Below are positions 1,737 to 43,887 of a stretch of DNA of 64,000 bases, piece by piece; positions within the stretch are counted from its first letter, which is position 1, and every line of letters begins with the position of its first letter. The DNA comes from an uncultured Verrucomicrobiae bacterium (GTDB lineage Bacteria; Verrucomicrobiota; Verrucomicrobiia; Chthoniobacterales; JAFAMB01). Both the position numbers and the translations under genes were made by a program. The notes under the pieces are model-generated. The model made no database searches. It had not been told where the DNA came from and saw nothing but the letters and a program-made list of their open reading frames with translations. Location: the NCBI GenBank assembly GCA_963775805.1, contig CAVZKG010000002.1:454693-518692 (forward strand), given 5' to 3'.

Positions 1737-2099
1737 CTAAGCTATTTTCTCTGCGCGCCCTCGCTGTCGCCGTCGATCTCTCATAATCGTGAAAGCGGAG
1801 ACAACAAAGATTCCGACGCCGTACAAAAACGTCGAGGGCTCGGGCGTAACAGCGGACAGGATAATTCCGAATCCTACCGCTTGTCGTCCGTCTAGCGACG
1901 TAAAGTTTGCTATCACACGAGTCGGATCAACGGTGCCAAGAATGCAATCCTCGGCACTTCCGCCAACCGTTCCGGTAATAGTGAAAGCGTTCGATCCGAC
2001 CCCTGACAACGTGGGTATAGATCCAGTCCCGTTGTACACTGAATCTAATAAACTCCAGGAATTGCCGCCAGTTATCGTTCCCGTGACAGTTTCCGGCAT
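1737..2099 (-). CDS. PEP-CTERM sorting-domain protein, N-terminus uncertain or truncated
   Basis: The C-terminus VTPEPSTFLYGVGIFVVSAFTIMRDRRRQRG has the PEP motif, a TM helix and an Arg cluster. The track ORF extends to 2375, but that part is antisense to the VOC gene. The first internal ATG is at 2099. No signal peptide is visible for any start. Confidence 0.55.
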   Translation of the reverse strand: MPETVTGTITGGNSWSLLDSVYNGTGSIPTLSGVGSNAFTITGTVGGSAEDCILGTVDPTRVIANFTSLDGRQAVGFGIILSAVTPEPSTFLYGVGIFVVSAFTIMRDRRRQRGRAEKIA

Positions 2100-2174
2100 C
2101 AGCGTATTTTGAGCAGTGATTTGGTCGTTGGTTGATTCGACATCGGCCAAAACAACCAAACGAAAGGAAAGTCT

Positions 2175-2612
2175 ATGGCAAAAGTCAGTACCTACCTCAA
2201 CTTCAGTCGCAACACCGAAGCGGCGTTCCTCTTCTACAAGTCGGTCTTCCAAACCGAGTTTGTTGGCCCAATCATGCGCTTTGGTGATGGCCCAAGCTGC
2301 GCAGATCAACCGCCACTTTCGGAAGCAGACAAAAACCTGGTGCTGCACGTGGCGTTGCCCATTTTGGGCGGACATGTTCTTATGGGATCCGATGTGCCGG
2401 ACTTTCTAGCTACAAAGTTTGTGAGCGGAACGAATGTGCATATCAATCTGGAACCCGATACTCGCGCCGAAGCTGACCGCCTATTCAATGGCCTCTCCGA
2501 CGGCGGCTCGGTGGAGATGCCGTTGCAGGACATGTTCTGGGGTGCATATTTCGCCAGTTTTACCGACAAGTTCGGCATCCACTGGATGATCAACTGCGAA
2601 AGCAAAAAATAA
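2175..2612 (+). CDS. VOC/glyoxalase-fold protein, PhnB-like
   Basis: This is a 145-aa ORF with an RBS aaaggaaag upstream. The sequence MAKVSTYLNF...AEEAF.FY..VF...HVALPILGGHVLMGSD...MPLQDMFWGAYFASFTDKFGIHWMIN is typical of the PhnB/3-demethylubiquinone methyltransferase-like VOC family. Confidence 0.85.
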   Translation: MAKVSTYLNFSRNTEAAFLFYKSVFQTEFVGPIMRFGDGPSCADQPPLSEADKNLVLHVALPILGGHVLMGSDVPDFLATKFVSGTNVHINLEPDTRAEADRLFNGLSDGGSVEMPLQDMFWGAYFASFTDKFGIHWMINCESKK

Positions 2613-26178: not shown

Positions 26179-27117
26179 ATGAAGATTTCGATCATCACTG
26201 CGTCACTGAATCGGAAAGAGTTCATTGGTGCGGCGATCGAGAGCGTTCTGGCTCAGAAGTTTGCGGATTTCGAGCACTGGATTATTGACGGTGGATCCAC
26301 CGATGGCACTCTGGAATACCTGAAGCAGTACCCGCATTTGAAGGTGGTGTCGGAGCCGGATCGCGGGGTGTACGACGCGTGGAACAAGGGGATTGATCGG
26401 GTAACCGGGGACTTGGTTGGGATTCTGAACAGCGACGACGTCTACGCGGCTCATGCGTTTGAGAATTGCGCGAGACTTATAGCCAGATCACCATTTGCTC
26501 AGGTGGTATCGGGTGGTTGCCAGATATTTCGAAAAGGGCCTCGAAGCAACGAGATCGAGATGCATCGATATCAGGATCCTTCGCGATATCGTCTTTCTCT
26601 TCGGAATGCGACGCTTGGTTTGCCGATCATCAACGGCCGGTTTTTTCGGCGTTCGGTATTTGAAAGATTCGGGCGATTTAACCTCGATTATCCGGTCGCC
26701 TCGGATCGGGAGTTTTTGATCAGGATGTCGCTGGCGGGAACGACGGATGTTTGTTCGTCCGAAGTCTTCTATCGCTATCTTTGGCATAGCGGTTCTCTCA
26801 CGATGAACGCGGGGAACAAGACCATGCTGAATGGTATTGAGGATGGTCTGAAGATTGTCCGTGCAACGCGTGAGAACAACAGGTTGCGGAACGAAGCGGA
26901 TGAGGACCTTCGCGATTGGCGCCGTGAACTCCTTGCCACGAGAGTGATGGTTTACGCGGTGATGAAGGAAAGAGGGAAGACATTCGAGCTGGCAAAAGAG
27001 GCGATGGCGACTGATCCCTCCTGGCTGTTTGCTTTTGTACGTTGTGGGACACTCGCCGCGGCCCGCCGTGCGCGAACCAAGCTCCGCACCTGGCGCGAAA
27101 ACTGGAAAGCAAGGTGA
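26179..27117 (+). CDS. glycosyltransferase family 2
   Basis: MKISIITASLNRKEFIGAAIESVLAQKF..WIIDGGSTDGT...NSDDVY is the GT2 (GT-A) signature with DxD. Confidence 0.85.
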   Translation: MKISIITASLNRKEFIGAAIESVLAQKFADFEHWIIDGGSTDGTLEYLKQYPHLKVVSEPDRGVYDAWNKGIDRVTGDLVGILNSDDVYAAHAFENCARLIARSPFAQVVSGGCQIFRKGPRSNEIEMHRYQDPSRYRLSLRNATLGLPIINGRFFRRSVFERFGRFNLDYPVASDREFLIRMSLAGTTDVCSSEVFYRYLWHSGSLTMNAGNKTMLNGIEDGLKIVRATRENNRLRNEADEDLRDWRRELLATRVMVYAVMKERGKTFELAKEAMATDPSWLFAFVRCGTLAAARRARTKLRTWRENWKAR

Positions 27118-28220
27118 ATAGTCTGGGACGGAAGATTCGGGTATTGCACCTGATCGATAGCCTCGACTTGGGTGGTGCACAGACCGCCCTGTTTGCATGG
27201 CTCAACGAGCATGATCGAAGCCGGTTCGACGTGCATCTCGCTTCGATTCACGGTACGTCCGAGAGTCTTTTCTATCATCGGGCAAACGAACTCCAAATTC
27301 CGGTGCTTCCGCTTTCTCCGCGGCGTTGGTTACCGCTTTACGCTTATCGGTTGCCGATCCAGCTGATCATCAACCGCTACGATATCGTTCATTGTCATCT
27401 ATTCGCGTCGAATTGGATCGGCAAACCACTGGCTCGTCTCCTCGGAGTGCCGGTTGTCGTTTCGGAGGATCAATGTAACGACGCGTTTCGAAGTGGATCA
27501 GCGTTGGTTACCCGCATCGACCGATTCGCGAATCGTTTTTGCGATCAGGTCTTCGCGGTTTCACGAAGTATTCGGGATTACCTGGTCGAGCATGAACAAG
27601 TACCGCCCGGGAAGATTCGAGTGATTCCAAATGGATTGCCCGAAACGCCGCCGCCGCCACCGCGTCAATTCTCCAAAAAACGTATCGGAGGTGCCGGCCG
27701 GCTCGTTTCTCAAAAAAACTTTGAGCGATTTCTTCGGATTGCCCGCCATCTCCAAGGTCTTGATCAAACGTACGAATTCAAGATCGCCGGGTATGGTCCG
27801 ATGGAGGAGACGTTACGGAGTTTAGCAAAGCAATTGGGAGTGAAAATGGAATGGCTCGGAGCGCAGCCGGCTCTTGATCGCTTTTTCCAGGAAATCGATC
27901 TCTTTTTGCTGACATCCGATTTTGAGGGGTTGCCAATGACTGTACTCGAAGCATTGCAAGCTGGAGTCCCGGTCGCGGCGATGGCGGTTGATGGTATCAA
28001 AGAGGAGTTTGTCGACGAAGTAGCGTTGCTGACCCCGTCATCAGGCGATTTCGAGATCGCCCAGCGCATCGACGCTTTGATGGCGGACCCGGAGGCGCTT
28101 CACTCTCAAACCCAACGAGGGTTCGCACTTGTCTCGAGCCGGTTTTCGGCCAGAAACCAGATCCGTGAGATCGAAAGTGTGTACATTGATTTGCTGACGA
28201 GGAAGAGGAGGCTTGAGTAG
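27114..28220 (+). CDS. glycosyltransferase family 4 (GT-B, group 1)
   Basis: The GTG at 27114 overlaps the GT2 stop (GTGA). The sequence reads RVLHLIDSLDLGGAQT...FLLTSDFEGLPMTVLEALQAGVPV (E-x7-E region). Confidence 0.85.
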   Translation: MNSLGRKIRVLHLIDSLDLGGAQTALFAWLNEHDRSRFDVHLASIHGTSESLFYHRANELQIPVLPLSPRRWLPLYAYRLPIQLIINRYDIVHCHLFASNWIGKPLARLLGVPVVVSEDQCNDAFRSGSALVTRIDRFANRFCDQVFAVSRSIRDYLVEHEQVPPGKIRVIPNGLPETPPPPPRQFSKKRIGGAGRLVSQKNFERFLRIARHLQGLDQTYEFKIAGYGPMEETLRSLAKQLGVKMEWLGAQPALDRFFQEIDLFLLTSDFEGLPMTVLEALQAGVPVAAMAVDGIKEEFVDEVALLTPSSGDFEIAQRIDALMADPEALHSQTQRGFALVSSRFSARNQIREIESVYIDLLTRKRRLE

Positions 28221-34029: not shown

Positions 34030-34716
34030 CTATGAAGCTTGACCAATCGGTGTCGTCTCCTTTTGCACCGATTTCTTGAGATCGTTCAACTCGGCTTCAA
34101 TCTGTTCTGATCTCTCAAGATCCTGAAACTGTTTCTCGAGGCTTACGCCCTTTCCATAGTTCACCAGATCCGCCTGCGCTTCCATCCGTTCGATTTGCTG
34201 CTCAAAATGTTCAAGGCGAGCGGTAGCAAGGTGCGAATCGGCTTTGCGGAGTTGTTCTTGTGATCTGGTTCGTTGCCGAGCCTGGGTGTGCCTTTGTGCC
34301 AAGACGCTCTGCCTCTCCCGGGCGCCGGTGAGTTTCTCTTCCAACTGCGAGATCTCGCTCCGATATTTGTTAATGATTTCTTCCAATTCAGCAATTTCGG
34401 TTTCGGCAGCCGCGCTTCCTTCAAGAGCCTGATGTTTTTGCGCCAGAGCTTCGCGGGCCAGATCTTCGCGGCCTTTCTCCATAGCAAGCCTTGCCCTCTT
34501 CTCCCATTCTTCAGCTTGGTGGCGACGCGCCGTCAAGTTTCTGTCGGCTGTCATCCGTGCGGCCATGGTGCTCGCGCAAGAAGCTTTGATCTCGATCTCG
34601 GTCTCTTCCATCTCTTGGATGATGAGCCGGATCATTTTCTCCGGATCTTCGGCTTGGTCGAGCATGGCATTGATGTTGGAGTGAACGATATCTCTGAATC
34701 GACTAAAGATGTGCAT
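34030..34716 (-). CDS. pspA: phage shock protein A (PspA/IM30 family)
   Basis: The start is the ATG at 34716, preceded by GAGGAG. MHIFSRFRDIVHSNINAMLDQAEDPEKMIRLIIQEMEE is the canonical PspA N-terminus, followed by a long coiled coil. The track ORF (to 34896) is an upstream extension. Confidence 0.9.
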   Translation of the reverse strand: MHIFSRFRDIVHSNINAMLDQAEDPEKMIRLIIQEMEETEIEIKASCASTMAARMTADRNLTARRHQAEEWEKRARLAMEKGREDLAREALAQKHQALEGSAAAETEIAELEEIINKYRSEISQLEEKLTGARERQSVLAQRHTQARQRTRSQEQLRKADSHLATARLEHFEQQIERMEAQADLVNYGKGVSLEKQFQDLERSEQIEAELNDLKKSVQKETTPIGQAS

Positions 34717-34743
34717 TGATTGGTCTCCTCGAGGCAAACAATT

Positions 34744-34759
34744 AGCAACCCGAATGCCA
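34744..34759 (-). promoter_or_regulatory. sigma54 (-24/-12) promoter of pspA
   Basis: The minus strand reads TGGCAT-tcggg-TTGCT, matching the consensus TGGCAC-N5-TTGCW. It lies ~28 nt upstream of the pspA ATG, leaving a short leader that contains the SD. It is divergent from a bEBP gene. Confidence 0.7.
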
Positions 34760-34853
34760 TACAGGGCAAAGATACGTAATACATTGATTAAAAGGATCTT
34801 ACACCTCAGACAATCCTCGATTTCAAGCTCGCCTATTTGGTCGTATATGCCAT

Positions 34854-35894
34854 ATGATGGCGAATATGGCTGATAGTAGGATGGATTCGCCTTCACTCGC
34901 GCAACCGAGAGAGGCGGTCGGGGCGAGTGAGTTGTTTCTCCAGTTTCAGCAGCAGGTCGCGCGGGTGGCTGGTCCGATTCGACCTGTCATTCTGATTGGT
35001 GAACGAGGTACCGGCAAGGAGCTAGCCGCCGCTAGAATTCATTTCCTCTCCCCGAGATGGAGCAGGCCATTCATCAAATTGAATTGTGCGGCTCTTTCAG
35101 AATCGGTGTTGGAGTCGGAACTTTTTGGGCATGAGGCTGGAGCATTTACTGGGGCGCAACAGCGACGTGAAGGGAGGTTTGAGTCTGCCGACGGTGGAAC
35201 CCTTTTTCTGGATGAGCTCGGGTTGATGCCGTTGACCGTTCAAGAAAAACTTTTGCGAGTGGTTGAGTACGGCGTGTTCGAACGGGTGGGTTCGTCTGAT
35301 TCGATTGAGGTCAACGTGCGGCTGGTTGCGGCCACGAGTGTTGACCTTCGGTCATTGGTCGATCAAGGAAAGTTTAAAGCGGACTTGCTGGATCGTCTGG
35401 CGTTTCAAGTCATTCATCTGCCGCCTCTCCGAGCACGGGAAGGGGACGTCTTGCTGTTGGCAAATCATTTTGCCAGACGATTCGCAGTCGAACTCGGCTT
35501 GGGCTGGACACCGATATTTGGTCGCTTGGCGATCGCCGAGCTTGAACGCCATGATTGGCCAGGGAACATCCGAGAGTTGCGGAATGTCGTCGAACGAGCC
35601 GTCTATCTTTCGGATCAGGCTGAAATTACGACTATCGTTATCGATCCATGGATAGCGCCGTTTGATTTTCGGCGACCTGCCGAAACAAATACAGGTTCGA
35701 AGCCGCAAATGTCGCCGGAATATTCACCGATCGATTTCGATAGCGCTGCCGCAAATCACGAAGTTCGGTTACTCCAGGAAGCGCTCAAAGCTTCGCGGTA
35801 CAATCAACGGGAAGCTGCGAGGTTGCTTGGACTGAGCTACGATCGATTTCGAGGGCTCTACCGGAAATATCAGGCGACGCTTGAGCGAGAATAG
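34854..35894 (+). CDS. pspF: sigma54-dependent transcriptional activator PspF (no N-terminal sensory domain)
   Basis: The AAA+ domain starts ~25 aa from the N-terminus ([15 protein letters not shown]). It has the GAFTGA loop ([10 protein letters not shown]), an R-finger region and a C-terminal Fis-type HTH ([23 protein letters not shown]). Confidence 0.85.
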
Positions 35895-38323: not shown

Positions 38324-39433
38324 ATGAAGACCTCCTCTAACAGATGGACTTGTGTCCATCTTAAGAACCTAGCTGCATGGGGGATACCCTTGGCGATGCT
38401 CACTATATTCGCTATGCCGGCCATGGCGAATCATATAGACACAGCCACAGTCACACCAACTTGCGACCAGTATACCATTTGCGTTCAAGCCTCGGACTTG
38501 AATCCGGGCCAGAGTTACACGATCACCTACTCCATAACAGTGACGCCGTCGTCGGGGACGCCGATGACGACTAGCAATTCGATTCCTTTTACGGGCCCTA
38601 AGAATGGTATTTTCAATACCTGCCTCACGCAACCGTGGGGGCCGCTAATCGGTACTAACACTTTCTCGGGTTCGGCCACTCTGGTAGGAGAGAATACAAT
38701 CCCGATCACCTTTTCGCCGACCAAATTAAAGTGCGGAATGCCAACACCGACGCCGACACCGACACCGACACCGACGCCGACACCGACACCGACACCAACA
38801 CCGTGTCCTCCGTGCGCGAGTTCATGTATCCAGTCGAACTTCAACGGCACGGCGATTCCGGCTGGCGACACTGTCTGGTTTAATGCCCATATCAAGGCCA
38901 GCGGGATACCTTCCTCCGGCGCAACGATCACGTTCTGCGGTTTGACTGTTACGTCCAGCGCGTTCTCGGCGAACGTTCCAAACGGGGTAATTATTTTCAG
39001 CCCGAGCGCCTCGTGCGCCTCCACTTCGTTTAACAGCAGTACGAATACCTGGACCACGACCGTTCCGATCTCGGGGAGCGATGAAATTTTCGTGACCGGG
39101 CTGGCTCTCCCACTGCCAAACGGTTTGCCGGGCGGCGGTATTTCGCCAAACTTGTGTGGTATCTACAGCGCCTCTGTGCCTGGCATATCTCTGCAATGGC
39201 AATGGGGTGCGGCAGTCTACACCTGCTGGCCGCCAGCTCCTGGTGTCTACAACCTGCTTAATGTCAAGCCGACCCACCAGAACGCATGCAACGTGAACAA
39301 CGGTGACCATGCGGGGACTCCAGAAAATGCGTCCTTCCAGTGTGTTACCGGTGGAGCTACGGGCGGTGGCGGGGCGAACTTTACTGGTTCATGGAGCGGT
39401 ACGGTCTCGACAGGGCAGCTCTGCGTACCGTAA
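38324..39433 (+). CDS. secreted Cys-rich two-domain protein with a (PT)10 linker
   Basis: It has a signal peptide ending AMPAMA, an N-terminal ~130-aa Thr/Ser-rich domain, a PTPTPT... linker followed by CPPC, and a ~215-aa C-terminal domain with about 10 Cys and a Gly-rich tail. No C-terminal sorting signal is present. No family was recognised. Confidence 0.7.
   Translation: MKTSSNRWTCVHLKNLAAWGIPLAMLTIFAMPAMANHIDTATVTPTCDQYTICVQASDLNPGQSYTITYSITVTPSSGTPMTTSNSIPFTGPKNGIFNTCLTQPWGPLIGTNTFSGSATLVGENTIPITFSPTKLKCGMPTPTPTPTPTPTPTPTPTPTPCPPCASSCIQSNFNGTAIPAGDTVWFNAHIKASGIPSSGATITFCGLTVTSSAFSANVPNGVIIFSPSASCASTSFNSSTNTWTTTVPISGSDEIFVTGLALPLPNGLPGGGISPNLCGIYSASVPGISLQWQWGAAVYTCWPPAPGVYNLLNVKPTHQNACNVNNGDHAGTPENASFQCVTGGATGGGGANFTGSWSGTVSTGQLCVP
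38741..38803 (+). repeat. hexanucleotide (ccgaca/ccgacg) microsatellite encoding (Pro-Thr)10
   Basis: cca aca ccg acg ccg aca ccg aca ... runs for 63 nt in frame within the 38324..39433 CDS. Confidence 0.9.
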
Positions 39434-39587
39434 GCAGTCCCTGATGGTACATGGACGGGTTGATTTAACGTAACGTTGAGGCGTAGCCGAATGACGATCG
39501 GCTACGCCATTTTTATGTCCGCTGCTAACGTCGCTTCCCAAGGGTTAACGCTCGGGAAAATCGATTTTTACCTTTACACAAACCGGT

Positions 39588-41288
39588 TTGCGACGATTTT
39601 CGTCCGTCGGAGACGTGCGGATTTCAGCCAAAGCCTTTTCAATCATCACCCTGTTGGCGACTTGCCTCTTTGGAGCGATAGGATGGGGTAGTTATTCGCT
39701 TTACCGGATCGAGAAGCAAAAGCGACTTCTTAGCAATGCGAGGATCGCTCTGGAAAAACATGGAACCGAACAGGCATGGTTCTGGGCTTCTCAGGCTTTG
39801 CAGAATAAGCAAGACGGAATCGAAGAGACCCGGCTCATGGCAGATATTGCGCAATCTGCCGGATCGCCCTACGCGATCTCCTGGAGAGCTCAAGTGGTTA
39901 GATTGGAGCCCAAGCTCCTCGAAAACTACCTGGCTTGGGCGGACACGGCGCTCGTTTTTGGGGACTTGGTCGCGGCACGTATCGCGCTGGATGCAGCGCC
40001 GAAAGAGGCACAGCAGAATGCCTCCTGGCACAGCTTATATGCGGGCGTAGCGAGCAATACTGGGCAATCTGCGGTCGCTGAGTTTCATTTTTCGGAAGCG
40101 GTACGACTTGACCCGCAAAACCCCACCCATCAAGTAAATTTAGCCACCTTCCAGTTACGCTCGCCAAACCCTGAAATTGCCGAGGCGGCGCGAAAGACGC
40201 TTGAATCACATAGCGGAATTGCCGCAGTTCAGATCCTGGTTTGGAGAGCTCTGCTAAAAGATACAATTCGCCGAAACGATTTGGAGCTCGCCAAGGCTTA
40301 CAAGGAACGTTTGTGGAGCGACCCCCGCGCAGAGTTTGGTGATAAAGCAGATTGTCTTGAGGTAGCCCAGCGAGAAGGGAATTTGCAGGTGTCTTTGGAA
40401 CGGCTGCAAAGTGAGGTGGGTAATCAACCGGAAAAAGCAGCGCTTCTAATCTACTGGATGATGAATCATGGGCTTGCCCGCGAAGCGGTTGCCTGGGCGG
40501 ACACGGTTTTTCCGGCGAGCGTTGCGAAACTGCCCATACAGATTGCGGTAGCAGATGTCTTGGTGCAAACGAAGGAATGGTCGGAGCTTCGCGAACGGAT
40601 AGCGAATGAGAAGTGGAACGGGTTTGATTTTATTCGGCTGGCCATGTTAGTCCGCATCAGTCGGGAAGAAGGTCTCGTCTGGCGCGCGGACTGGAATAAA
40701 CTGACGCAATCGGTTCCAATAGACGGAGGAAAGATGCCGCTGGGCCGACTAGTGCAGTCGTGGGGATGGACAGCCGAGTCGCGCGATTTGTATTGGCAGG
40801 TCGCGGATGCTTCGGCGCCGGAAGAACGCGAAGCACTTGAGCGGCTTTGGAGAATATACGAAGACGATAAAGATACCGCAGGGCTGCTCCGCGTCGCCAC
40901 AAAGCAGTACGAGGAAAATCCAAACAACGTGGTTGCGCGAAATAACTACGCATTTCTCCTGTTGTTGTTGGACATTAACCGAGAAAAAGCGGTGCGGCTT
41001 GCCGAAGAAACTGCGAAGCAGGCACCAGACCAGCCCAATATTGCAGCAACTCTGGCATTCGCTCGATTTCGGCAGGGCAACCCAGAAGTAGCGAAACAAG
41101 TGCTGGAAAAATTCGATGAACAGACGCTGGAAAAGCCTGGTATTGCTTTGTACTACGCCCTCTCGCTGAGCGGCTCAAAAGAATCTGACAAGGCATTGCA
41201 CTACGCGCAGATCGCCGAGCGATCTCAGAGCCTGCTTCCGGAGGAAGCGGTTTTGGCAGGAAGAGTCGTTGGTGCGCTGGACCGGTAA
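39588..41288 (+). CDS. membrane-anchored TPR-repeat protein (exosortase-system associated by context)
   Basis: It has an N-terminal TM helix (FSIITLLATCLFGAIGWGSY) followed by ~500 aa of TPR-like helical repeats. The start is uncertain (TTG 39588 or GTG 39615). Confidence 0.75.
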   Translation: MRRFSSVGDVRISAKAFSIITLLATCLFGAIGWGSYSLYRIEKQKRLLSNARIALEKHGTEQAWFWASQALQNKQDGIEETRLMADIAQSAGSPYAISWRAQVVRLEPKLLENYLAWADTALVFGDLVAARIALDAAPKEAQQNASWHSLYAGVASNTGQSAVAEFHFSEAVRLDPQNPTHQVNLATFQLRSPNPEIAEAARKTLESHSGIAAVQILVWRALLKDTIRRNDLELAKAYKERLWSDPRAEFGDKADCLEVAQREGNLQVSLERLQSEVGNQPEKAALLIYWMMNHGLAREAVAWADTVFPASVAKLPIQIAVADVLVQTKEWSELRERIANEKWNGFDFIRLAMLVRISREEGLVWRADWNKLTQSVPIDGGKMPLGRLVQSWGWTAESRDLYWQVADASAPEEREALERLWRIYEDDKDTAGLLRVATKQYEENPNNVVARNNYAFLLLLLDINREKAVRLAEETAKQAPDQPNIAATLAFARFRQGNPEVAKQVLEKFDEQTLEKPGIALYYALSLSGSKESDKALHYAQIAERSQSLLPEEAVLAGRVVGALDR

Positions 41289-41479
41289 TTTGGAGCGAAG
41301 CATCAATCGCGAATTGCATTGTCCAAGGTTTGGCTTCGTGGTAAGAAGCCTTGCTCGTGGCCTACCCTATCGTCAGCAGTGGTACTTTGCCGCAAGCTGC
41401 AGAGGGGATGCTTAGCTGTTCTCTTTGTGGCTTGGCTTGCCAGAAGCTCGCACTCGGGATGCTGGTGGTAGAGGAGGAA

Positions 41480-42217
41480 ATGAATCTCGTCAGGCGCCGC
41501 TTGACGCTGCACTTGTTATGGTTGGCCGCGTTCCTGTGCAGCGTGGCCACAGCACAGGCAAACCTACTTTCTGACGGCGATTTTGAAACGCCCGGTAGCT
41601 CTTTGACCACCAACTTTATCGGTCTCATCTCCTCGGGAAACCAAAACGCGCTCACGGGGTGGCAAGCGCAACAGGGCAATCAGTCGTCAGGAGATGTCTA
41701 TTATTCGGCCAACAATTCGTCGAGAGCTTCGATCCCGAATGCCGAGAGCGGAAGCTATTGCGTTCAGCTTTCCAGCACGACCGGTCCTGCATTTAACAAC
41801 GGTTCCTCGATCAAACAGTCATTTTCAGCTATCAGCGGAACCCACTACTCTCTGTCATTCTGGATTAACAGCACGGCCAATGGGCTTGCATTGAATACTT
41901 CAACGATTGATTATTCTATAACCGGCGCAGGATTGAACTTCAGTCAAACGGCGACTACGCAGGCGGCGCCGGTCCTCCCCAACAAGAATCAGCCGTGGAC
42001 GCACGTGACGTTTAACTTCACCGCGACAAACGCCGGCACCGTCACTATTACATTCACTGATGACAAGAGCAACGGGACCAACAGCGTCTCGCTTGACAAT
42101 GTTGATCTTGAGTCTGCTCCGGAGTACTCGCACTGGTCTGTGTTTGCTATTTTCGGCATCGCTTGTTTAGCTCTCGAAACTCGTCGTCGGCATAAGGCTC
42201 GTGAAAACGTCGGGTAA
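41480..42217 (+). CDS. PEP-CTERM-type sorting-signal protein (PEY variant) with a DUF642/CBM-like N-terminal domain
   Basis: The ATG at 41480 is preceded by gaggagga. It has a signal peptide MNLVRRRLTLHLLWLAAFLCSVATAQA. The mature part starts NLLSDGDFETPG and ends SLDNVDLE. The C-terminus is SAPEYSHWSVFAIFGIACLALETRRRHK. Confidence 0.75.
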   Translation: MNLVRRRLTLHLLWLAAFLCSVATAQANLLSDGDFETPGSSLTTNFIGLISSGNQNALTGWQAQQGNQSSGDVYYSANNSSRASIPNAESGSYCVQLSSTTGPAFNNGSSIKQSFSAISGTHYSLSFWINSTANGLALNTSTIDYSITGAGLNFSQTATTQAAPVLPNKNQPWTHVTFNFTATNAGTVTITFTDDKSNGTNSVSLDNVDLESAPEYSHWSVFAIFGIACLALETRRRHKARENVG

Positions 42218-43736
42218 AGCTCCTGGGCGGTGGGTTTGTACCCTTCTTGTTCTGTTTGTTCCTTGGGTCCTTCTGGTCTTCCACTTGAGCAGCTTTTGGT
42301 CCATCGACCCCGAATATAGTTATGGCTGGGTTGTACCGCTGATGGCGGCATTCTTCTTTTGGCAGAAATGGAGAACACATACGGCTTATCCGGGTGAAGC
42401 CGGAGAGCGCTGGCCAGTCATTTGGGCTGGTTTTGCGGCTGTGCTGTTGGCCCTGGTGTGGTTTGTGCACGAAGCGGTTCCGGATTGGAGTGTGGTGAAC
42501 TGGGTCTTTGCCATAACCGTGGTTTTTTACCTGTATTCGCTAGTCGCATCTCGATGGGGTGGGTCGACCGCACGGTATTTTGTTTTTCCGATCGCGTTCG
42601 TTCTCTGTGCAGTGCCATGGCCGCAGCGCCTGGAGCTAATATTGGTACAGGGACTGATGAAAGAAGTTGCGCGTGCAACTGTCGAAATAGTCGCCTGGTT
42701 TAACGTTCCCGCGCTTGCTACAGGCAATGTCATTTTGATACCCAACGGAGTGGTTCGTATCGATGAAGCGTGCAGCGGTGTCCGCTCTTTACAGTCGATG
42801 CTGATGATGTCTCTCTTTTTTGGGGAACTATTGAGGCTGAAAATGTCGAGGCGACTCGGTCTGATTTTTCTAGGCCTGATTTTCGCACTGTTTTTTAACT
42901 TGGCTCGAACCGTAACCCTCGTGTGGATTGCCAGCGCTAACGGGCTCCGGGCGGCGGAAAGGTGGCATGATCCAGCCGGATTGAGTGTCCTGTGTCTCTC
43001 TGTTTCATTACTTTGGCTGGTTGCTCAGCCTTTCGCGAGAGGGACGGCTCACATAGAAAAAAACGGCGGCCTGGCTCGACTTGAGCCATTCCCGATTGGT
43101 TTGATAGCCGCATTCAGCGGCTGGTTTCTGTTCTTCATCGTCGGAACCGAGATTTGGTACCGGCGAGGTGAGGCAGGTCTTGCCCCTGCTCGGCAGTTAT
43201 CGATTGTTTGGCCGACAGACGTCAGTGGTTTCTCTAAAATCTTGATCCCTGACTCGACTCGACGAGTTCTTCTCTGCGACGACGCGAAATGCGCCTTTTG
43301 GCGAGACCAGTCTGGAATCGGTTGGTCATTCTATTCTTTAATCTGGAACTCTGGGCGAACTTCGACGCAGTCTGCGCGGATTCACCGCCCGGAGAACTGT
43401 CTCCAGGGTTCTGGTGCAATCTTAAAGGCAGAGTTAGACAACACGCCGGTCGCTGTGGGTGGCACATTGTTGGCGTTTCGAACATACTTGTTCGAACTTA
43501 ATGGACTACCTTTACACGTGTTCTACCTAATTTGGGAGGACGGTAATAGAGACCTTGATCCAGCTGCGCTCGGACAGGATTGGTCCGGCATTAGCCGGTT
43601 GCAACGCGTTTGGTCAGGTCAAAGAAACCTTGGCCAACAGACTCTTGAGATCGTGCTTTCCGGAGCGACTAGCGACCAGGAAGCAAGGACGACTCTGAAA
43701 GCCGAACTTGGGAAAATTGTCCGGATCCGCTCTTGA
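42201..43736 (+). CDS. exosortase fused to a C-terminal EpsI-like domain
   Basis: It has a polytopic N-terminal half with exosortase catalytic motifs: DEACSGVRS (Cys), FFNLARTV (Arg) and WHDPAG (His). The C-terminal ~200 aa carry the EpsI-like motif IHRPENCLQGSG. The GTG start overlaps the substrate gene by 17 nt. Confidence 0.8.
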   Translation: MKTSGKAPGRWVCTLLVLFVPWVLLVFHLSSFWSIDPEYSYGWVVPLMAAFFFWQKWRTHTAYPGEAGERWPVIWAGFAAVLLALVWFVHEAVPDWSVVNWVFAITVVFYLYSLVASRWGGSTARYFVFPIAFVLCAVPWPQRLELILVQGLMKEVARATVEIVAWFNVPALATGNVILIPNGVVRIDEACSGVRSLQSMLMMSLFFGELLRLKMSRRLGLIFLGLIFALFFNLARTVTLVWIASANGLRAAERWHDPAGLSVLCLSVSLLWLVAQPFARGTAHIEKNGGLARLEPFPIGLIAAFSGWFLFFIVGTEIWYRRGEAGLAPARQLSIVWPTDVSGFSKILIPDSTRRVLLCDDAKCAFWRDQSGIGWSFYSLIWNSGRTSTQSARIHRPENCLQGSGAILKAELDNTPVAVGGTLLAFRTYLFELNGLPLHVFYLIWEDGNRDLDPAALGQDWSGISRLQRVWSGQRNLGQQTLEIVLSGATSDQEARTTLKAELGKIVRIRS

Positions 43737-43814: not shown

Positions 43815-43887
43815 TGGAGCCTAGGGGATTCGAACCCCTGACCTCCTCAATGCCATTGAGGCGCTCTACCAACTGAGCTAAGACCCC
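43815..43887 (-). tRNA. tRNA-Ala (anticodon GGC)
   Basis: The reverse complement is GGGGTCTTAGCTCAGTTGGTAGAGCGCCTCAATGGCATTGAGGAGGTCAGGGGTTCGAATCCCCTAGGCTCCA. It folds into a cloverleaf with the G3:U70 Ala identity pair and anticodon loop ATGGCAT. Confidence 0.9.

Follow-up and report, generated by a model that had tools for sequence, protein, structure and literature searches.

Among described exosortase systems, XrtA/EpsH–EpsI–PrsT of the Proteobacteria (TIGR03109, TIGR02914 and TIGR02917; PMC1569441) combines a polytopic Cys/Arg/His exosortase, an EpsI-type domain adjacent or fused to it, a TPR protein encoded nearby and secreted proteins ending in PEP-type tails. The usual setting of an exosortase is an exopolysaccharide (EPS) locus, and PEP-CTERM proteins make the attachment of EPS to the cell more stable (PMC1569441; PMC12188702). 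XrtD, which is specific for VPLPA-CTERM tails, is a long exosortase described by a 486-position model (TIGR04152), while dedicated sorting by one enzyme of one adjacent target has been defined for rhombosortase/GlyGly-CTERM and some sortases (PMC3237569). Here we examine a three-gene cassette at positions 39588-43736 of a 64,000-nucleotide (nt) stretch of DNA, hereafter the window, from an uncultured Verrucomicrobiae bacterium (assembly GCA_963775805.1, contig CAVZKG010000002.1, positions 454,693 to 518,692 of the forward strand). From the observed gene structure and family membership, and from the conservation of residues and of gene neighbourhoods, we propose, with a probability of roughly 0.7, that this cassette is the core of a Verrucomicrobiota-type PEP-CTERM/exosortase sorting system, a functional counterpart of the proteobacterial XrtA/EpsH–EpsI–PrsT system that is not XrtA by model definition.

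The three genes lie on the same (+) strand and are tightly linked, as originally predicted. An open reading frame (ORF) of 566 amino acids (aa) at 39588-41288 encodes the TPR partner, one of 288 aa at 41351-42217 a DUF642/choice-of-anchor-C-like secreted protein and putative exosortase substrate, and one of 511 aa at 42201-43736 an exosortase–EpsI fusion. All three products have homologs, with E-values ranging from 1e-48 to <1e-200. The 511-aa protein passes the Pfam Exosortase_EpsH model (PF09721; 147.1 bits, cut-off 25.7) and the NCBIfam exosortase/archaeosortase signature (TIGR04178; 59 bits, cut-off 23), and falls 1.45 bits short of the general exosortase model TIGR02602 (8TM_EpsH; 104.1 bits, cut-off 105.55). 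The catalytic motifs noticed in the original prediction are all present, with DEACSGVRS at residue 188, FFNLARTV at 231 and WHDPAG at 255. In the corresponding region (42771-42968, +), Cys191 (42771-42773), Asn233 and Arg236 (42897-42908) and His256 (42966-42968) are invariant in an alignment (A1) of 37 homologs at 32-72% identity. Judged by its sequence, the protein is a true exosortase.

None of the lettered NCBIfam exosortase models claims this enzyme, which agrees with the suggestion that it stands outside the known subfamilies. It reached 106.9 bits against XrtA (TIGR03109; cut-off 208), 89.8 against XrtD (TIGR04152; cut-off 400), 73.8 against XrtW (cut-off 425) and 71 against XrtV (cut-off 313). 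More generally, it scored far below the cut-offs of XrtB, C, D, H, J, K, M, N, O, R, S, T, V, W, X and G and of CrtA-C, and none of the 37 homologs scanned singly attained any lettered cut-off. Across this family XrtD is a better match (6e-41) than XrtA (2.5e-32), and neither passes. The likeness to XrtD extends to the length of the enzyme and to the reach of the model into an additional C-terminal domain, residues 35-411 of the window protein being aligned to model positions 6-386, but the tails encoded in the neighbourhood are of the PE[P/A/F/Y...] type rather than VPLPA. A protein search returned 206 homologs, of which the listed full-length ones measure ~500 aa, besides a few fragments; the few with an organism name are mostly from Chthoniobacter, Chthoniobacteraceae or Verrucomicrobiota, one being from an Acidobacteria metagenome-assembled genome (MAG). 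More than 550 stretches encoding homologs were found in a metagenome scan, and a scan of a genome collection yielded one relative, from a Verrucomicrobiota MAG. The enzyme thus belongs to an unlettered clade of several hundred fused ~500-aa proteins whose named members are mostly from Verrucomicrobiota. A 541-aa gene call on a 2967-bp JGI contig (P0031) joins the first ~238 residues of a TPR partner directly to exosortase residues ~205-511; the catalytic Cys is therefore lost, and P0031 is an assembly chimera or a deletion pseudogene.

Downstream of the catalytic body, a ninth membrane helix (residues 299-324; 43095-43172, +), in which W319 and Y320 are invariant and R321 almost so among the 37 homologs, leads to a divergent EpsI/DUF3485-like alpha/beta domain (residues ~330-511; 43188-43733, +). 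The EpsI-like motif IHRPENCLQGSG is present at residue 394 as predicted, and its residues H395, P397 and C400 (H-x-P-x-x-C) are invariant in the same alignment. Taken alone, the window protein matches DUF3485 (PF11984) at E=0.039 (14.1 bits, cut-off 26.1). Among the 37 aligned homologs, 18 match DUF3485 at E<=0.01 and seven match NCBIfam EpsI_type_V, while P0079 passes the Pfam threshold (27.5 bits vs 26.1) over profile positions 7-188 of 203; the XrtD alignment likewise extends to residue 411 of the window protein. Membership of the window protein in the EpsI family (PF11984; NCBIfam TIGR02914 and NF045608) would thus rest on transitive homology through its relatives, and on these grounds the proposed covalent attachment of an EpsI-like domain is supported. 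Its presentation as a departure from a usually separate EpsI does not hold, as Haft et al. reported in 2006 that some EpsH proteins bear an EpsI-homologous C-terminal region (PMC1569441), and the domain is present in all 37 aligned homologs; other listed matches are of similar length, a few fragments excepted. An AlphaFold2 model of the 511-aa protein (predicted local distance difference test score 84.8, predicted template modelling score 0.80) consists of a helical exosortase body, a linker, the ninth helix at 299-324 and the alpha/beta domain at 332-510. If the N-terminus is cytoplasmic, the ninth helix would leave the EpsI-like domain on the periplasmic side, next to the catalytic face. When residues 332-510 (43194-43730) were compared with the PDB by Foldseek, weak matches to DcrB, LpqN, PsbP, MTC28 and SciW/EagT6 were obtained. 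SciW and EagT6 are DUF1795 chaperones that bind transmembrane helices, and this weak likeness in fold is a possible clue to the function of EpsI.

The TPR partner matches Pfam TPR_19 (43.7 bits) and comprises a single N-terminal membrane helix (AFSIITLLATCLFGAIGWG) followed by TPR repeats. Of the NCBIfam models, PrsT (TIGR02917) matches it best, with 71.7 bits where 312 are required and over model positions 768-890 only, so that the resemblance to PrsT noted originally is real but below threshold. The same model also ranks first in NCBIfam for 21 of the 22 TPR homologs, each far below cut-off, and the family is uniform, with lengths of 557-611 aa and a single N-terminal hydrophobic helix. We considered a lipoprotein because the segment 'LLATC' resembles a lipobox, but its Cys is absent from the homologs and the segment is consequently read as a membrane anchor. 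Behind the anchor comes a highly basic segment, YRIEKQKR (within 39588-39700). To survey neighbours, hidden Markov models (HMMs) built from our alignments were run against all ORFs of 86 non-redundant loci, partners being counted in any orientation, and the 39 of these loci that extend 2.5 kb or more to either side of the exosortase were regarded as well flanked. No more than 2.5 kb separate the TPR partner from the exosortase in 23 of the 39, the count rising to 25 when the whole locus is considered, and the two genes are direct neighbours in loci L086, L087 and L088. The TPR protein is a conserved companion of the exosortase.

The middle protein passes Pfam DUF642 (PF04862; 38.9 bits, cut-off 27) and scores below cut-off against NCBIfam choice_anch_C (TIGR04362; 56 bits vs 120), and its orthologs also match CBM_4_9. 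It shares with choice-of-anchor C proteins a jelly-roll, carbohydrate-binding-module-like domain. The choice-of-anchor C family is defined by varied C-terminal anchors, PEP-CTERM included. Unlike that family at large, this protein and its orthologs bear a conserved PE[F/Y]SHW tail whose helix includes a Cys and whose Arg cluster is preceded by a Glu. The end of the window protein, SAPEYSHWSVFAIFGIACLALETRRRHKARENVG, combines a motif with a hydrophobic helix and a basic cluster (42119-42214, +): PEY at residues 257-259 (42119-42127), SHW, a 14-residue hydrophobic stretch (W262-L275) containing the Cys, then the Glu and RRRHKAR, which ends four residues before the C-terminus. Together with an N-terminal signal peptide (AQA|N), the protein therefore has the three-part PEP-CTERM design, Tyr replacing the second Pro, and is a plausible substrate with a deviant sorting signal, as had been proposed. 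The listed intact orthologs (48-100% identical) keep TPE[F/Y]SHW, the Cys and the Glu (LE.RRRR), and two further orthologs are disrupted at the C-terminus. More distant family members encoded beside exosortases end in VPEFSNW, VPDFSNW, VPDISNW or VPDSSNW. Because relatives range as far as the canonical VVPEPS tail of the ortholog in L009, we read PE[F/Y]SHW, from comparison of these tails, as a derived PEP-CTERM variant in a family permissive at the third position.

Whether this protein is the only client of the enzyme is another matter. A 212-aa protein without a Pfam domain, encoded at 1737-2375 (-), 40 kb from the enzyme, ends in a canonical PEP-type tail, SAVTPEPSTFLYGVGIFVVSAFTIMRDRRRQRG (TPEPSTF...RDRRRQRG), and is likely a second exosortase client. 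A DUF642 neighbour occurs in seven of the 39 well-flanked loci. In ~20 distinct loci of relatives, the exosortase has a PEP-type gene at a distance of up to ~400 bp, and these adjacent tails vary at the third motif residue among P, A, M, I, V, F, Y and S, with the same spread in distal tails; related loci hold up to three PEP-type genes. Among exosortases at 61-64% identity, the slot is occupied by a different gene, for instance one for an ice-binding-like adhesin; in L010 (61%) the tail of this upstream adhesin passes the Pfam PEP-CTERM model (20.8 bits vs 20.7), being the sole tail to do so. These observations do not fit the single dedicated substrate of the original prediction. We infer that the enzyme serves many clients, including in this genome, where the many-to-one relation would follow from the second tail and from the relatives.

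The original prediction had also contrasted the module with classical XrtA/EpsH loci for its lack of polysaccharide genes. This is true of the window, where a search with the flank genes of related EPS loci found no polysaccharide export or polymerase genes and a single match, a GT4 gene at 27042-28220, but it is not true of the relatives, since those at 73, 70, 65, 64, 63 and 40% identity sit in EPS clusters. The GT4 gene adjoins a GT2 gene (26179-27117), both on the (+) strand ~13 kb 5' of the cassette, and these are the sole polysaccharide-type genes in the window. In the six relatives the exosortase lies in a full EPS cluster, and the TPR gene is there in five, being absent from L002. The TPR–DUF642–exosortase cassette itself recurs in L003-L006 at 70-73% identity and lies inside a polysaccharide cluster in L003-L005, the loci long enough to show their flanks. 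L004 and L005 (73%) encode Poly_export, an AAA_31 Wzc-like kinase, ABC2/ABC_tran, methyltransferases, glycosyltransferases and a 430-aa protein of no assigned family, and L003 (70%) encodes glycosyltransferases and an O-antigen-ligase-like membrane protein. L002 (65%) is an EPS cluster in which the exosortase has neither a TPR nor a middle-gene neighbour. On the P0009 contig (64%), TPR, ice-binding-like adhesin and exosortase genes are followed by BBP2_2, Poly_export and AAA_31, while in L086 (63%) the exosortase, TPR and a CshA-like protein with a VPEG tail, in that order, are accompanied by Bac_transf, Wzy_C, a barrel protein, Poly_export and AAA_31. More distantly, L087 (40%, Chthoniobacter sp.) has the order barrel protein, Poly_export, Wzz, exosortase, TPR, then Wzy_C and an ABC transporter. 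L088 (42%) holds an exosortase–TPR pair without EPS genes and a DUF642 protein (VVPEFSNW...FEVRRRRRR) two genes upstream. Isolation from EPS genes, seen in the window and in L088, is thus a local arrangement that does not characterise the family. Most relatives have their exosortase–TPR pair amid polysaccharide genes, and in this genome the cassette has come away from such genes. No PrsK/PrsR pair was noted among the window ORFs and selected proteins examined, nor in the loci with Pfam-annotated genes. At 34030-35894 the window encodes a divergent phage-shock-type PspA/PspF pair, i.e., PspA/IM30 (34030-34896, -) and, lacking a receiver domain, a sigma-54 activator (34854-35894, +). This PspF-like protein is the only sigma-54 activator in the window; it shows that the organism uses sigma-54 and is unrelated to PrsR.

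The boundaries of the genes and of the unit bear on how the cassette is expressed. The 17-nt overlap of the last two genes (42201-42217), claimed from the ORF list, was confirmed and is considered real because GTG 42201 is the sole start codon that retains the N-terminal membrane helix of the exosortase, which is kept in the 37 homologs with L29, W33 and Y39 invariant. In public data the exosortase is called as P0001 (464 aa), which begins 47 codons downstream (window 42201-42341) and, being too short, omits this conserved helix. The putative substrate and enzyme genes are translationally coupled through the overlap. For the TPR gene, whose ORF opens with TTG, both the relatives and the L001 gene call favour a start at GTG 39615 (557 aa). 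The likelier start of the middle gene is ATG 41480 (245 aa), with a GGAGG-type ribosome-binding site (GAGGAGGAA) upstream and the signal peptide ending AQA|N downstream. Between the preceding gene and the TPR gene, a strong terminator-like hairpin (39480-39508, +; 11 pairs, 8 of them G-C, then ATTTTTAT) is probably the upstream limit of the unit, and the three genes are probably co-transcribed from a point downstream of it. A tRNA-Ala(GGC) gene (43815-43887, -), 79 nt past the exosortase stop, forms the downstream limit, and may be the breakpoint at which the cassette split from a polysaccharide locus. A scan for sigma-70 promoters gave no signal beyond shuffled controls, and a search for sigma-54 promoters (TGGCAC-N5-TTGC) gave 59 matches where 60.6 were expected, which is chance level. 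We also considered an origin as a mobile element. It was rejected, as base composition is uniform and neither integrase or mobility genes nor meaningful flanking repeats were found around the cassette, with just the tRNA-Ala gene downstream. Directly 5' of the cassette, a gene at 38324-39433 (+) encodes a 369-aa secreted Cys-rich protein, for which neither a family match nor a sorting tail was found; its (Pro-Thr)x11 linker is encoded by a 12-nt tandem repeat at 38741-38806.

Some results weigh against reading the cassette as the core of a PEP-CTERM/exosortase system. Neither the middle protein nor its isolated tail matched the PEP-CTERM models (PF07589, TIGR02595) at E<=10, and a home-made HMM, overfitted as it was built from 16 strict VPEP tails, gave 5.0 bits to the PEY tail and 8.6 bits to the canonical tail of the window. 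These tests have low power, several textbook tails, including the canonical one at 1737-2375, being also without a model match; because canonical tails are missed too, we do not read the negatives as absence of a signal. Charges flanking the anchor leave the orientation of the TPR partner ambiguous: summed over the 22 homologs of alignment A2, they amount to +62 net on the C-terminal side and +39 on the N-terminal side, so that the TPR domain might lie in the cytoplasm, like that of LapB, instead of in the periplasm, like that of PrsT. Lastly, neither sequence nor fold searches (Foldseek vs PDB) found a solved exosortase structure, so that the chemistry is drawn from conservation and published proposals.

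Other explanations must account for the same observations. The proposal closest to the original prediction is a dedicated one-enzyme/one-substrate system of a new class, a portable three-gene cassette specialised for the PE[F/Y]SHW tail. As in dedicated sorting systems, the genes for the putative target and the enzyme are consecutive and overlap, here by 17 nt; the window protein and its 37 homologs all stay below the lettered Xrt cut-offs; and the listed intact orthologs of the middle protein preserve TPE[F/Y]SHW, the helix Cys and the Glu before the Arg cluster. DUF642 proteins with P[E/D]xSNW tails accompany exosortases as distant as 35-42% identity (L016, L022, L033, L065 and L088), and the cassette stands alone in the window and nearly alone in L088. 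The pairing nevertheless dissolves when the relatives are considered, as few well-flanked loci have a DUF642 neighbour and close relatives differ in what the slot holds: at 61-65% identity the exosortase either lacks a neighbour there (L002) or is accompanied by an adhesin (L010, its tail validated by Pfam) or a PEG-tailed CshA-like protein. Even the ortholog in L009 carries the canonical VVPEPS, the third position varies equally in adjacent and distal tails, and unlike dedicated systems there is a second, canonical PEP-tailed protein within the same 64 kb, with several PEP-type proteins in relatives. We therefore consider a dedicated system unlikely.

At the other extreme, the enzyme could be an ordinary XrtA that is merely divergent in sequence, XrtA being the best-scoring specific model for the window protein and the EPS loci, EpsI domain and PrsT-like TPR neighbour of its relatives, which sit among Wza, Wzc, Wzy and glycosyltransferase genes, being hallmarks of XrtA (PMC1569441). 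This we judge quite improbable. The score is half of the cut-off and the family as a whole prefers XrtD; EpsI is always fused, and divergent to the point of an E-value of 0.039 against DUF3485; the TPR partner is a ~560-aa protein with an N-terminal membrane helix, whereas PrsT is a ~900-aa lipoprotein (899-position model) whose cut-off it misses by a wide interval (71.7 bits vs 312); a PrsK/PrsR pair was noted neither in the window nor in the Pfam-annotated loci, the sole sigma-54 activator pairs with PspA, no sigma-54 promoter signal was found and the window lacks polysaccharide genes of the export type. The original prediction had set its proposal against this case, an ordinary XrtA with dozens of canonical PEP-CTERM substrates elsewhere and without specific co-occurrence of the adjacent genes. 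The outcome is divided: the enzyme is not ordinary XrtA and the TPR gene does co-occur, but the system is not single-substrate and the family resides in EPS loci. An even less probable explanation, which we hold to be very remote, is that the cassette is a decaying remnant, stranded from a polysaccharide locus and without function by now, or that the middle gene encodes merely a tail-anchored membrane protein rather than a substrate. No EPS export genes occur in the 64 kb, the tail fails the PEP-CTERM models and the tRNA gene just beyond the cassette might be the site of a rearrangement; yet the three ORFs are intact, the catalytic and EpsI motifs unchanged and the start sites coupled, the same EPS-free layout is found in L088 at 42% identity, base composition is uniform and no flanking repeats or mobility genes were found.

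Under the preferred reading, a Verrucomicrobiota-type PEP-CTERM/exosortase system, the DUF642 protein would be held in the inner membrane by its C-terminal helix, with the RRRHK cluster in the cytoplasm and P-E-Y at the periplasmic face. Eight membrane helices would put the catalytic residues of the exosortase at the outer face, where the enzyme is predicted to cut at or near P-E-Y through a thioester intermediate on Cys191, assisted by Arg236 and His256. The cleaved protein would then be handed to an acceptor and released for the cell surface or the matrix. The ninth helix would set the EpsI-like domain in the periplasm near the active site, where it presumably handles the substrate or the acceptor, and the conserved partner of the enzyme, the membrane-anchored TPR protein, may act as a scaffold. 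Many clients would be served by each enzyme, as PEP-, PEA- and PE[F/Y]-type tails all occur around relatives. Cleavage, topology and the roles of the EpsI and TPR components are proposed here from residue conservation and from published models (PMC1569441; PMC12188702).

This is not a new type of system, as modules of its kind had been met in soil bacteria before and the system itself, the EpsI fusion, the idea of a TPR partner and PEP-tailed choice-of-anchor proteins were all known, and the picture of how exosortase systems work is unchanged. What is new is at the level of curation only: a clade without a subfamily model, a cryptic EpsI domain together with a shorter, membrane-anchored TPR partner, and a DUF642 client in which an aromatic form of the motif is conserved. 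This should be useful to curators and to students of Verrucomicrobiota cell surfaces, as several hundred exosortases with a fused cryptic EpsI domain are named merely "exosortase/archaeosortase family protein" and their TPR partner had gone unrecognised; the 2006 survey listed neither EpsI nor PrsT for Verrucomicrobium spinosum (PMC1569441). The client slot, with its varying third motif residue, also offers a natural series for testing recognition by exosortases. A bolder proposal, which we offer tentatively and with more doubt than belief, is that the EpsI-fused ~500-aa exosortases and their ~560-aa TPR partner form a distinct unlettered class in which the lectin-like DUF642 protein, marked by the conserved tail PE[F/Y]S[H/N]W...C...E-RRRR, is more than one substrate of many, having either the rank of a preferred first client or a permanent place as an accessory subunit. 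If so, this protein might tie the enzyme to a glycan, letting the cassette work away from polysaccharide loci.

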